A DNA stretch of 63,347 nucleotides, the filler included, from Kipferlia bialata (lineage: Eukaryota): the NCBI GenBank assembly GCA_003568945.1. It is 6 parts of 6 records of this genome, joined end to end, with 100 filler letters (N's around TTAATTAATTAA, not from the genome) between each part and the next. Parts side by side here need not be neighbours in the genome. Positions count along the whole stretch, not along the records: positions 10,089 to 27,200 come from BDIP01000544.1; positions 27,301 to 39,620 come from BDIP01000545.1; positions 39,721 to 56,804 come from BDIP01000546.1; positions 56,905 to 62,052 come from BDIP01000559.1; 2 more parts are not named here. The stretch is one strand, 5' to 3'. The translations under genes were made by a program, and so were the position numbers. Positions 22,701 to 61,861 of the stretch are shown here, piece by piece. The stretch's first letter is position 1. Each line of letters starts with the position of its first letter. The notes beneath the pieces are model-generated. The model worked only from the letters and a program-made list of their open reading frames with translations, did not search any database and was not told the origin of the DNA.

Positions 22701-25700
22701 TAGGATAAGTAGTCATTTACATGGTCCACATATGTTAATATGAAGAGATTAGTATCGTGCCCAATGAGGTGGTTGGGTGCATGGGGCAGGCACTTGTGAA
22801 GGATGCCCATGAGACATTGGTGCACGTGGCTCTATGGTTAGACAGAAATACAGCATGTGTATACGATAGACTAATCCAGAACACCCTCGAGTATCTTCTG
22901 CTAGTCTCCTTTCACGTTCAAATAGTTGTAGTTTCAAACACTGCTGTTGGGCTGGAGTGTTGGGTACGTATGGTATTGGCAATGTATAAGTACGCGATAC
23001 CTGCTGCTCCCCCTCCTCAAGGTCTATACATGGTGCTGGGGAGGGGGAAGGTGTGGAGGTGAACACAAGGTGGGTGTAGCTACCAGAGTCACTACCACCC
23101 ATAGTGTTCTGGCAGTTAGAGTGTGACAATCGTTTAACATGTTATTCATATGGGTAGGAGTATACTAATACTGAACCCACCTGTTGTCCTCTGCCAACTC
23201 TGTTGCACTTGTATGGCAGTACGGATGTTGCCATTATTGCAGACCCCCTGTCGATCTCTTGTTAGTAATCAATTAATCATAGGTATGCAGTCCTGATTAA
23301 TAATAGTAGGAGCTAGGTACTAAATACTAAATACAAATATTACCCTACCTCTTCCTCCTCACCCACACACCGCACACCAAGAACATGGGGGAGATCGCGG
23401 ACCCTGTGGGTAAGGGACACCACAAAAAACTGCAAATTGTGAAACGGCATGTATCGCTGACTATACCTGACCCCTGTCGCGTCCTGCAGGTACTCTCCCA
23501 CAGAGAGGAATGATGCTCTGTCGTTAACAACGGTATTGAAGAGCCTATGAGTATAATGATGATACAAAGTCTTGGAATAGGGTACCGAGAAACACAAACA
23601 TGATAATCATGAGCACAAGGGCGATGCAAGAATACATACACAAATTCTGATAGCACAGGAGTATCATGTTATCCAAAGGGAGACATGATGGAATAGCGTA
23701 ACCCGCACCTGACAACATACTATTCTATCTATATATACCTGATAATCATGAGCACAAGTGTGATGCATGACACCCCTGGGGTCCGTAGGAAGGCTGGTGT
23801 GAGAAGACGTGTTAGGTATGTGCCAAGAGTAAGTAATACATAGTGGGGGAATTTACACACCCGGTGCCACTGTCAGCAGCATCAGTATCATAATAATTGA
23901 AGACATATATGTACTAAGTGCTTGTACATACCAGGTGCCACTGTCAGTACGCTAAGGAGTCCCACGTAGTCTGCAATGTTGGAGCACTCAATGTGGTCAA
24001 AGAGGAAGGGTCGAGGGGAAGTGCCAGCTTTACACACAGGGTAGGAATGGGGTGTTGGTCCAAGAACTCTCTCTGAAGGGTAAGTATATATCAGAAGCAC
24101 ACACAAAACAAAGAGAAAGAGAAATAGATTTCGGTGGGGATTGTTACATACCTAAGAGAATCTGGATACAGTCTCCAAAGAGAAGGGTGAAGTCAGCGCG
24201 TCCACTCTCCATGGATGTGTAGAGAGAGCGCATCCAGTCCCGGAAGATGATCTATGAGTAAGCATTCAAAGATATGAAACTTCAATGAAACGATTATCCT
24301 GTCAATTTGGAGAAGAGTACATATGCACAGATACCACCTTGCCTTACACTTAGGGAAGGAGAAGAGTATGGAGAAGAGTATATATGACAGCAGATAGTAT
24401 AAATATCAGAATGTTACTTACCTTGCACTTGGGGAAGGGAGGCACCGTGCCGTTTACCCTGAGGTGAGATGAATTGAGAAAATCAGGTTGCAAACAATGA
24501 AACATATTCGTATAGACAGCTACATACCCCTCTCATGACATCCCCATCAGTGGCTGAATATATGTATATAACTATATATACTCTTTACCAATAGAACCTA
24601 GAACTACATACCCCTCTCCTGGCATACCCATCAGGGGCTGTGTGCCATACTGGACAGACCACAGGGGACAGTGGGTAGGGTCAGTGAGACAGGGCCTGGG
24701 GTCAGCCATATACCATAGAGGCATCAATATATAGATGCATTAACAGGCATAGTAGCATATACGCAGACACTGCGACAATATATATACTATGGCTCCATAC
24801 ACAAATACATACACAAACCTCAGGTCGCACCCCCTGTACATAGTGGGGTTGCACACAGAGGCACTGTCGGCTGGGCCGCTGAAGGATCCGTGGACAATGC
24901 AGTCTAGATGCCTGTGATGTGAGAACATATAAAGTATTGGATAGTATTGGATAGTGTTGTATAGTATTGGATAGTATTGGATTATGATTGACAGAGAGAA
25001 TATTCATATCCTGGTGGAAACCGAAATGGTGTTGCACTTACTTTTCCATTGACTCTGTGAATCGTGCCGTGGTATTGGTTCCACCATACACGGTCCTAGC
25101 CACCTACTGTCAGAATAGTATCCTTCAAAATCAGTATTGTTACACTATTTCCAATAACACGGTAGTGTATGCGACTTGATATCTGCTACTTCGATACCTT
25201 CCTCACAGCCTTCTCCAGGTCTGGTAGAGGATCATGGGAGACTGGTCGTGTGAAGATCTCTAGCTGCTCTGGAGTAAGAGAGCACACTGAAACATTATAC
25301 AATCTGGTACATACTGTGCTATACATGATATTGAGGGAGATAGTGTGAACCAGTATAGTTTCCTGAGAGATATGGAGGGAGAGAGAGAGTCCCTCATGTC
25401 ACCTGACGCAGGAGTATAGTACCGAGCAAATGAATATGGATATGTGTATACATATAGTATATATATATATAGTGTACAGATGGAGTGCCTTATACATATA
25501 TGATAATGTGGTCATATGATATATACCTGGCGCACTGGCACTGAATCCCTCTAGTCTCTTGTGGTGTCTGTCCAGTCTTAGTCTCTGACACCTCTTGGTG
25601 TAGTTGATGGGGTCCAACTGAAGATAAGGCAATTGAATATACTGGTACTAGCGTTATACAAACACTATTATAATTAAATACTATTGTATAATAGTAGTAG

Positions 25701-25903
25701 TGCCTCTTGGTGTAGTTGATGTGGTCAAGCTAGAGATGAGACCTTCAATAGAGGTACGTGGGAATACATATACACACACATATATGCTTTAGGTAGTTGG
25801 TGGGGGGGGTCCAGCGATATGTTAGGTACCTTGAAGGGATACATATACATTGAAGGGTATACTTGATATATGTATTGGTGTGTATATACAATATGGTACA
25901 CAT

Positions 25904-59900: not shown

Positions 59901-61861
59901 ATGTATGTATATGAGGAGAAGGACCATATGAACGTGCATGTACTCATTCAACGGCAGGGCAGTCAGGGTAGAGGAGTGTGGTATGTTTCTGTGTACGAGA
60001 AGTCTTGTGACATATACTCTTATGAATACTCTGGATTTGTAATCCCTCTCTCTCTCCCTTAGATAGCACCCTCACCCCAGGCCTTATGGAGCAGGGTGTT
60101 GCTTTGGCATCTACCAGGGAGAGGCTGGAACAGGTGGGTTATACAGTGTATGGTGCAGTAGCAATGCAGTGTGTAGAGCAGTGTATTCGTGGTTGAGTTG
60201 ACCAGTAGGTGTCTATCCAGCTCATGGAGAGGGAGAAGGAGAGAGACATCCTGAGTGCAGAGAATGAGGCTCTGTTGGCTAACAAGACTGAGGCTGAGAG
60301 GCAGATACACACGCTGAGGGAGACCCTAGAGACAGGTTGGTGCCTAATGGGGAATACAGAGGATTGCTCATATCCTTTAACGATAGTAGTCTACACTGTT
60401 TATAGTGTGTATATAAATGGTACTGACCCCCACCCCAGCCAGGTAGAGTGAGGCGAGGGTGTTGCTGAAGTATATATTTATATATATATGTATACGTGTA
60501 TGTAAGTATAGATAGACCTCCATATATGTATTGGTGTAGATGTATACTGACCCCAGCCAAGGAGAGTGAGGCCAGGGTGCTGCTTAAGTACACAGAGGTC
60601 GAGGCCACCAATGTGGGTCTGGAGGGAGAACTGGCAGTGATCAGGAGCCAGCTCAACAGGTATACCCATCATCTGGCCCACCATAGTATTACCTCCCTTC
60701 TCAGGTGCCAGTATCAGTATAGTGATTGCATACATATAGGTACATGTACCTGTATATACCTACCCTCCAGGGTGGGTGCCGAGCTGGAGACCTCCAAGCA
60801 GGAGACCCTCAGCTGGAAGGGTAGACTTAAGCAGAAGCAGGAGGTACGGGATGGTCTCTGCTCCGAAGTGTCGCTGGGCTCTTTGATATCTCTATTCTAT
60901 GCTGTGTATTCTTTGACTGTGTGTTCTGTTTGACGCCTCTTGTCCCCCTAATCTCTAGGAGTTCCAGGGTCTTCGGCCCCCAGCTGCATTTGGGCACTCG
61001 TCAGGTATAGCAGTGTTAATTGTATATAGCAGTGTTGATAGTATATTGGTACTACTTGCTGTTGCATTTGGACACTTGTCAGGTATATACTCAGTGTTCA
61101 TTGTATATGGCCGTGTTGATAGTAATTCAAATACCAGAGTACTTGGACTCTCGCGGATAGCATCCACAACATAATGTATTCTCCCAAGTCATCTTGATAT
61201 CCTGATAATGGCTATAGAGTGACATGGTAGAGTATTCCACCTCCCCTCCCTCTCCTCACCCCAGGCCCCCCTGCCCCCAGTGCCACTGCATCCCCCACAG
61301 ACAGACCGGACCTGCTAGGTATGCATGTACATATATTTATATACAGACAGACCGGACCTGCTGGGTGGGTAGTGTATACAGATGTATATATATATATATA
61401 TGTGTGTGTGTGAATGTATGCATAGTGTGAATGTATTCATAGTGTCTATATGTAGTGTGGGTGATGACAGACCAGACCTGCTAGATGTCCATACGCATGG
61501 GGTAGTATGCCAATGATACATGTATATACACACTTATGATTCGTGTTGTGTGTGTGTGGCAGAGACAGTGCATGCTATGGAACAGATGACCCCTTCATGT
61601 ACAGACTTCTTACTGTGCCCTGCCGTGGACTCATATTTAGAGTGTGATACACTCAACTATCTCTCAGTGTCTCACCCCCAGCCACTGTCAATGGTCTGTA
61701 GAGTATACATAGGTTACAGGAAGTATACATAGCATGTCACCATGTCCATAACATACCCAACCCCAGCCACTGTCAATGGTCTAGAGATGGCCCTGGGCAT
61801 GTCCATACACTCAGTGGAGGCTGCATACACACAGACACAGGCAGAGCTGGCTGCCACCAAG
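56965..61861 (+). CDS. HOOK/girdin-like protein: N-terminal hook domain + long coiled coil, partial
   Basis: CLSLATIVVHACL..YVDVVLSLPSQHQTLIMSATQ resembles the hook-domain end (L+L.CAV..YI..I..L....Q..+M..IQ). Heptad-rich exons follow (LMEREKERDILSAENEALL.., LEGELAVIRSQLNR). Confidence 0.6.

Follow-up and report, generated by a model that had tools for sequence, protein, structure and literature searches.

Copies of exon edges lying within introns are known from amphioxus, where they are called "mirage" repeats and occur in Adh3, in the globin genes BflGb6 and BflGb9, in troponin C and in PGBD5 (PMC3087553, PMC3902484; both sources available in part). Their tandem copies span the exon-intron boundary on either side, many keep the AG or GT dinucleotide, and normal splicing is undisturbed; in PGBD5 the copies are imperfect and 60-108 bp long. 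This article deals with a 63,347-nt stretch of DNA from Kipferlia bialata, made of six contigs joined and hereafter called the window, in which exon edges recur together with their splice sites in the adjacent introns. We call these copies echoes, and all counts of them refer to the window. An earlier note on this DNA knew of no description of such a pattern; the lancelet mirages provide one, since echoes resemble them in every feature listed above. Two differences must nonetheless be underlined. Mirages are described as minisatellites, with whole units 81-100% alike that undergo concerted evolution at a few lancelet loci, whereas echoes are found in half of the introns of eight genes in a metamonad protist, only their exon part is alike, and their differences follow the reading frame. 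As the exon part of an echo differs from its model by 9% and the 18-nt intron flank by 49%, with a similar intron side in 14 of the 69 testable echoes, the minisatellite unit is not recovered here, and echoes are to be regarded as a variant of mirages rather than as a plain member of the class. Instability of copy number, between haplotypes or in somatic cells, is a further trait of mirages. No synonymous bias is reported for mirages in the available text of either source. Searches of the open-access literature, which leaves most subscription journals uncovered, showed no description of echoes in Kipferlia and no synonymous bias for such repeats.

Three other systems come close. In intron 7 of human F7, a 37-bp variable number tandem repeat carries silent pseudo-donors after the real donor, and the most upstream donor is used (PMC1557585, available in part). 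Silent pseudo-donors follow real donors in K. bialata too, but the F7 repeat consists of near-identical units at one locus, and 5′-to-3′ scanning would account for donors that are passed over, but not for the upstream acceptors that are passed over here. The tandem-duplication model of intron gain (Rogers; Gao and Lynch, both as cited in the available part of PMC3087553) likewise has gene segments duplicated internally, in lengths close to that of an intron; unlike in that model, no new intron arises here and existing introns lengthen. Among the RNA-contig joints listed, none splices a duplication out as a new intron. Finally, one-sided invasion repair with end joining is known from assays with transgenes and induced breaks: a homologous donor is copied from one of the ends, no homology is used in joining the other, and the outcome is a duplication. 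The origin proposed below for echoes has the same two ends, one homologous and one a non-homologous join, and in the literature searched this type of repair is not linked to exon-edge repeats or to the divergence of intron alleles.

The free-living fornicate K. bialata has 124,912 GT-AG introns (PMC5874029), and exon-edge repeats go unmentioned in the available part of that account of its introns. The spliceosome is described as reduced, with 87 of 174 proteins and no small nuclear RNA candidates found (PMC6679479, available in part).

Junction-anchored copies in the introns of eight genes

Gene models were built for the window, and echoes were called by aligning whole exons against adjacent introns. 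Four models match annotated proteins, one is partly RNA-supported, and three rest on open exon chains. These curated models comprise 8 genes on 4 contigs, with 91 introns and 182 exon boundaries. They contain 74 echo copies, which involve 45 of the introns and 55 of the boundaries, in agreement with the 45 or more boundaries, eight or more genes and four contigs estimated earlier. The 74 copies are a lower bound, because some genes are modelled in part and weaker or gapped echoes fall below the threshold. A masked direct-repeat search gave 92 local pairs, all but one of them within 23600-61800 (the other lies at 10154), and recovered within a few bases the 12 pairs that had been cited as examples.

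Forty boundaries carry one copy, 11 carry two and 4 carry three; 48 copies lie downstream of their exon and 26 upstream, and 73 of the 74 end within 3 nt of the junction. The exon-derived part has a median of 29 nt (10-90% range 19-41), the spacers a median of 74.5 nt, and the period a median of 108 nt (quartiles 90-118). Downstream copies join an exon tail to a donor GT, retained in 39 of 48, and upstream copies join an acceptor AG to an exon head, with the AG kept in 24 of 26. The architecture given in the earlier note holds: one to three extra copies, exon tail with GT or AG with exon head, a spacing of about 90-120 nt, and spacers that are mostly unalignable beside a similar exon part (55 of 69 flanks are unlike the real intron). 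Introner elements form families of similar introns at unrelated sites; echoes copy the local exon only. The same threshold is met by 0.4% of 7753 pairs of an exon with a foreign intron. At 51 of 182 boundaries, the junction-side exon end reaches 15-18 matches out of 18, whereas the opposite end of the exon, taken as a control, never exceeded 14 of 18 and attained that figure a single time.

The idea that such duplications are a route to intron expansion is supported, as median intron length rises from 110 nt without echoes to 245, 306, 416, 588 and 686 nt with one to five of them, each copy lengthening the intron by roughly 110 nt. The claim of a genome-wide process stands in part: splice-junction units are duplicated recurrently, but within the window the echoes are regional, with none in the 87 predicted introns (median 98 and 75 nt) of two control genes on the plus strand (144-7335 and 10262-19650). 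Microsatellite makes up 0.08-0.22 of the introns in echo genes versus 0.02-0.04 in these controls. More broadly, the 23 kb or so from 144 to 23500, on two contigs, is almost echo-free, with shorter introns and less microsatellite; perhaps regional echo density tracks recombination rate. An isolated upstream echo (10154-10193, plus strand), outside the range of the earlier note, stands at the start of contig 2. It immediately precedes the exon with which the model of the second control gene begins, and the intron that holds it is truncated by the contig end and was left out of the count. On the last contig, also beyond the range of the earlier note, inspection by eye of 62430-62600 (plus strand) shows an upstream copy, diverged in sequence, of the exon that starts at 62574.

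Are these copies present in the genome, and what does the cell make of them? DNA and RNA contigs were compared with the window over 27400-34560, that is 7.2 kb of the 38-kb echo region. In the DNA run X1, the seven longest contigs match this interval with no other letters and no gaps, at a flat depth of 470-478. Single contigs cover echo, spacer and real exon, one of 1939 nt spans 30954-32892 in the kinesin gene g6, and a 129-nt contig lying between two identical 35-nt copies has a depth of 475.5, not half. Tandem copies are therefore spanned at single-copy depth, contrary to the artefact that had been named as a refutation, in which the assembler stitches alleles in tandem. X1 may be the source of this assembly, so that the check is one by a second assembler, and not by long reads or PCR. 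The run X2 was accepted as RNA because its contigs join across GT-AG introns. These contigs splice out 27812-28080, 28629-29021, 31011-31407, 32123-32484 and 32933-33120, joining the real exons, and a loose end at 34115 runs into the real exon tail, not into the echo. In all, at least nine echoes in at least six introns are skipped and the echo-bearing introns are removed whole; no alternative use of echo splice sites was seen in the RNA contigs, which drop rare forms. Echoes are real genomic DNA, anchored to junctions and skipped in the main mRNA. Since proximal donors and upstream acceptors are both skipped, exon definition is suggested. In the minus-strand gene g8, the real exon 43749-43815, surrounded by three upstream and three downstream echoes, uses a GC donor in the annotated protein though two of the downstream echoes offer GT donors. 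These dozens of natural, skipped decoy donors and acceptors in genes with short introns provide a ready test of how a reduced spliceosome chooses its sites. Recursive splicing, another of the proposals made from the sequence, finds no support: AG-GT with a branch-like motif is present in 3 of 48 downstream echoes versus 22 of 172 ordinary exon tails, and AG-GT in 3 of 26 upstream echoes versus 33 of 178.

Codon-position bias and splice-site flanks

The main signal is one that is absent from the earlier note, a synonymous bias in the differences between echo and exon. These fall at codon positions 1, 2 and 3 in the numbers 37, 37 and 130, for about 720 sites each. The Nei-Gojobori ratio of nonsynonymous to synonymous divergence (dN/dS) is 0.18 (0.13-0.23), and it is alike for donor-side echoes, for acceptor-side echoes and with one echo per boundary; correcting for transitions brings it to 0.20-0.23, and reading in the wrong frames to 1.8 and 2.4. 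When a constrained exon is copied neutrally, the ratio of zero-fold to four-fold divergence (d0/d4) has to be at least 0.5. The observed value is 0.21 (69/1356 versus 80/370; p=3e-6 against a neutral self-copy), or 0.20 with one echo per boundary (p=2e-5), and none of 20000 simulations reached it. The four genes whose frames match annotated proteins give 21, 25 and 99 differences at the three positions, and the third-position excess is present in seven of the eight genes. As the bias persists without CpG sites (64/340 versus 65/1288), CpG mutability is ruled out as its cause, and so are transition bias and frame choice. Two further candidates were set aside by argument: self-copying with errors that selection then filters would call for an error rate of about 20% per site, and conversion within one haplotype, between an echo and its real exon, predicts ratios of 0.5-1.

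Within the 15 multi-copy families, 11 four-fold, 2 two-fold and 1 zero-fold differences are common to every echo of a stack, and the private ones number 8, 17 and 15; between echoes of a stack, dN/dS is 0.32 (0.21-0.48; 23 pairs). The type example is the 56-nt echo at 36875-36930 (minus strand) in gene g7, which copies the exon tail 36985-37040 with five differences, all synonymous; a second, farther copy at 36804-36831 has a stop and has lost its donor.

Beyond the splice site, likeness to the real gene collapses, with identity dropping from near 0.9 to near 0.55 over the first two intron bases. The 49% difference of the flank compares with 65-69% between unrelated introns, it is still 48% in the 23 echoes with at most one exon mismatch, and exon and flank divergence are not correlated. 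At p<=0.05, the intron side resembles the real flank in only the 14 of 69 echoes mentioned above. The g5 echo at 29492-29524 (plus strand) illustrates this: it matches the exon tail 29388-29420 at 33 of 33 nt; of the 18 nt that follow its GT, 14 depart from those with which the real intron begins; and over their distal 41 nt the two intron copies agree at 95%. The diverged flanks are yet valid ones. Echo acceptors score 8.5 against 10.4 for real ones and -0.3 for random intronic AGs; were half of the mismatches random decay, 4.9+/-1.0 would be expected, and 8.5 was reached in 0 of 3000 trials. In total, 37 of 48 donors and 24 of 26 acceptors surpass the 5th percentile for real sites, and the echo donor equals or outscores the real one in 19 of 48 cases. 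Partner sites were also counted: donors follow upstream echoes in 3 of 25 cases versus 5.3 in shuffled sequence (p=0.2), and acceptors precede downstream echoes in excess (10 of 47 versus 2.9). Nine of these ten lie inside the exon-derived echo sequence, which makes the test for selection against pseudo-exons uninformative.

Signs of decay are also found. Nonsynonymous changes run GC to AT by 38:19 versus 47:54 for synonymous ones (p=0.02), the BLOSUM scores of the amino-acid changes are no better than random (p=0.33), and 6 of the 70 amino-acid-changing differences are stops; stops are present in 6 of the 74 echoes. Because the changes are AT-biased, non-conservative and include stops, echoes are not under protein selection now.

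Possible origins of the echoes

We lean, with modest confidence, toward the view that every echo represents the border of an exon, along with its splice site and some intron sequence, that came from a strongly diverged functional allele and was left by break repair. Echoes differ from the working exon mostly at silent positions, and are hence likely to be the leftovers of repair between very different alleles; as the donors resemble the same gene rather than a paralog, and none is present in culture over the stretch compared, past alleles fit best. No donor allele having been seen, the mechanism is one that we infer. Two alleles would share their exons and carry introns too diverged to align, so that a break 15-60 nt from an exon border would find good homology on one side only. 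From the homologous end, the donor allele's exon edge and some 75 nt of the adjoining intron would be copied; the opposite end would find nothing to anneal to and be joined without homology. The exon would keep the edge of one allele, and that of the other, displaced into the intron, would decay neutrally, by about 0.05 per site, the spliceosome ignoring it, likely because only one splice site is present. Stacks would grow by repeated events, by unequal exchange through existing echoes and by some plain tandem duplication, about 110 nt at a time. Read in this manner from the sequence, the silent and flank divergence would have arisen while both copies were working exon edges, with some 0.05 of decay later, and the prior silent divergence between donor alleles would be about 0.15 (d4 minus twice d0). 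Such a model would account for the junction anchoring, the 20-40 nt length, the frame-linked differences, the diverged yet valid splice flanks and the stacks. It also fits what is known of the recombination machinery: metamonads are without the proteins of non-homologous end joining, fornicates lack Rad51A, have two Dmc1 and keep their meiotic genes (PMC8516963, available in part), and mismatched joints are stabilised by Dmc1 (PMC6719624, available in part).

We put forward a broader proposition more tentatively, at somewhat less than even confidence: in this fornicate, with Dmc1-only recombination and no non-homologous end joining, alleles with unalignable introns would routinely recombine and park displaced exon edges in introns, leaving thousands of stacked relics in a single-haplotype genome, from which outcrossing and about 15% silent diversity could be read and which would drive intron length. 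If echoes are indeed pieces of other alleles, one assembly evidences exchange between very divergent lineages and provides an estimate of their divergence. Otherwise unseen genetic exchange would be recorded in introns, in a group where sex is unobserved, and there would be a mechanism for mirage-type repeats, whose origin is called unclear in the available part of PMC3087553. The codon-position bias is a simple test that can be applied to lancelet and sea-urchin mirages.

A number of observations speak against repair between alleles. The donor allele was not found, X1 being a single haplotype over 27400-34560; the matched K. bialata proteins have no cluster mates; and a metagenome scan with the palmitoyltransferase P0001 gave 79 loci, of which the best segments were 25-60% identical and only distant DHHC genes, so none was used. 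The required silent diversity of about 0.15 is extreme, and sex is not observed in Metamonada according to the available part of PMC8516963. Some units are recent tandem copies (92% over 87-104 nt), and the 14 echoes with a similar intron side are plain tandem copies, so that the model does not cover all echoes. Distal junctions are not enriched for TA runs (3.26 versus 3.34, p=0.67), and TA runs find no support as break or join sites. The spacers, at a median of 74.5 nt, exceed what random drop-off would give in an intron of 75-110 nt; these near-full-intron spacers, the echo-free 10.3-23.5 kb and the echo-free contig 1 are left unexplained. The statistics have their own soft points: the acceptor score can be reached if a quarter of the mismatches are random decay (p=0.12), g4 has no third-position bias (2/1/2, five differences), private changes fail to reach significance in the zero-fold/four-fold test (p=0.13), the echo-echo dN/dS, when each family contributes one pair, is 0.41 and its interval is wide (0.19-0.75; 15 pairs), and no depletion of partner splice sites was found at echoes.

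The simplest alternative is the ordinary mirage, that is local tandem self-duplication by slippage or unequal sister exchange, in which only junction-straddling copies that leave one whole exon survive and stay visible, since the TA-rich DNA of introns would lose its likeness far sooner than DNA taken from exons. Recent whole-unit copies do exist (43838-43924 with 43933-44019, and 39759-39862 with 39847-39950, at 92%), and the 14 similar intron sides, the richer microsatellite of echo genes and the greater amino-acid change of farther copies (proportion of nonsynonymous differences, pN, 0.053 versus 0.033) all suit it. It is already strained by a d0/d4 of 0.21 where at least 0.5 is due, and by echo acceptors that have diverged yet kept their consensus beyond clock-like decay, and we hold it to be unlikely.

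Quite unlikely, in our estimation, is that echoes are self-copies under nucleotide-level selection, as splicing decoys, regulatory elements, or rare alternative or recursive sites. The echo would then be slow at all positions as the real exon drifts at silent sites, which also yields a d0/d4 near 0.2 and random-looking amino-acid changes, and the many strong echo sites are in keeping with it. The skipping of echoes by the RNA contigs, the lack of enrichment of ratchet points, and the stops, lost GTs and AT-biased changes that denote decay all run the other way, as do the echo-echo differences, which are silent-biased too. To our knowledge, no function requires about 30 nt to be frozen in a copy yet silently free in the exon.

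We would give as little weight to the same repair with donors that are paralogs, or the lost second subgenome of a hybrid, instead of segregating alleles. Silent bias and diverged functional flanks would be explained equally well, and candidate paralogs are at hand for kinesin: two exist in K. bialata, other X1 contigs (depth about 500) match kinesin exon pieces within 30330-32892 (65 nt, 4 differences), and X2 contains other kinesin transcripts from close paralogs, with some intron positions in common. The kinesin echoes nevertheless match their own gene where the paralog P0003 (262/362 aa identical) differs, and the X1 contigs hold no second copy over g5 or most of the kinesin gene. Exon searches with g8 and g12 gave one protein each, which is weak evidence, and stacked echoes differ among themselves, suggesting several donors.

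The last two explanations are very improbable. An assembly artefact, with alleles or strains stitched in tandem through TA microsatellites, would show just such allele-like divergence in a short-read draft with gaps, but it is at odds with the second-assembler contigs that cross echo, spacer and exon over 27400-34560 with no half-depth bubbles, and with echoes that are truncated and at times bear stops. As for intermediates of intron gain through tandem duplication of AG-GT proto-splice sites, a route suggested by the earlier note, put forward for mirages in PMC3087553 (available in part) and tempting in a genome so rich in introns (PMC5874029), the usable AG/GT pair it needs is present in 3 of 74 echoes, and every interval that carries echoes is a single intron in the RNA contigs as in the annotated proteins.

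Echo-bearing genes and neighbouring features

The first echo gene, g4 (23739-25981, minus strand), has no assigned function and was modelled in part, its frame coming from the open exon chain only; its 9 introns hold 3 echoes (23863-23876, 24528-24556 and 25703-25726). Also without an assigned function, g5 (27377-29978, plus strand) is partly RNA-supported, one RNA contig linking the exons near 27690-27808, 28078-28175, 28550-28628 and 29022-29161. It contains 8 introns and 7 echoes, at 27974-28007, 28399-28426, 28474-28508, 28706-28736, 28973-28988, 29492-29524 and 29797-29822.

The kinesin gene g6 (30308-34749, minus strand; Pfam Kinesin) has 14 introns and 9 echoes (30821-30830, 31180-31210, 31296-31328, 32183-32208, 32385-32413, 33009-33051, 33396-33428, 33841-33864 and 34577-34602), and its model agrees with the annotated protein P0002 at 364/364 aa. 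Short copies of the head of the last kinesin exon lie at 30424-30506 (minus strand), and in one of them the echo acceptor starts four bases past the upstream donor GT. The neighbouring Nic96/Nup93-like gene g7 (35374-39535, minus strand), with 18 introns and 8 echoes (36548-36583, 36804-36831, 36875-36930, 37329-37345, 38202-38237, 38664-38692, 38724-38788 and 39436-39457), agrees with P0002 as well, at 486/490 aa, and P0002 carries PF04097. The annotation of this 875-aa protein (30308-39535, minus strand) joins the Nic96-like gene and the kinesin gene, and P0002 is probably two fused genes. By comparison with the paralog P0003, the exon 34994-35074 and its two upstream repeats belong to the kinesin N-terminus.

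The most heavily loaded gene is g8 (39966-45509, minus strand; KIPB_003015), which encodes a hypothetical, cysteine-rich protein, matches P0005 at 226/226 aa and includes an assembly gap. All of its 9 introns have echoes, 25 copies in total between 40130 and 45370, and more copies are seen at 39777-39913, past the last modelled exon. Gene g10 (47864-50130, minus strand), with weak ubiquitin-like and RING-like matches below Pfam cut-offs, has 5 introns and 2 echoes (48081-48105 and 49729-49768). An older, more diverged copy of a g10 exon tail with a GT donor lies at 49627-49665 (minus strand), below threshold, and its amino-acid likeness to the exon persists. The ankyrin-DHHC palmitoyltransferase gene g12 (52651-56587, minus strand) equals the first 460 aa of P0001 (460/460), and an exon query returned KIPB_003017, a palmitoyltransferase, at 100% identity. 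Its 13 introns hold 10 echoes, at 53458-53496, 53565-53586, 54551-54570, 54973-54991, 55067-55095, 55560-55577, 55659-55676, 55932-55960, 56312-56348 and 56428-56465. Lastly, the coiled-coil gene g13 (57498-61861, plus strand), whose N-terminus we take to be Hook-like and whose frame comes from an open exon chain only, has 15 introns and 10 echoes: 57863-57884, 58959-58979, 59437-59456, 59847-59871, 59956-59974, 60439-60472, 61063-61082, 61343-61362, 61466-61484 and 61682-61702.

Outside these genes, 9128-9195 and 51040-51330 are non-coding and by eye resemble tRNA or a small structured RNA; ARAGORN found none in the window, and the 22 Rfam matches, all under gathering scores and mostly of low complexity, include none at either place. 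A prefoldin subunit gene is present at 9387-9773 (plus strand), with a Pfam Prefoldin_2 match above the cut-off.

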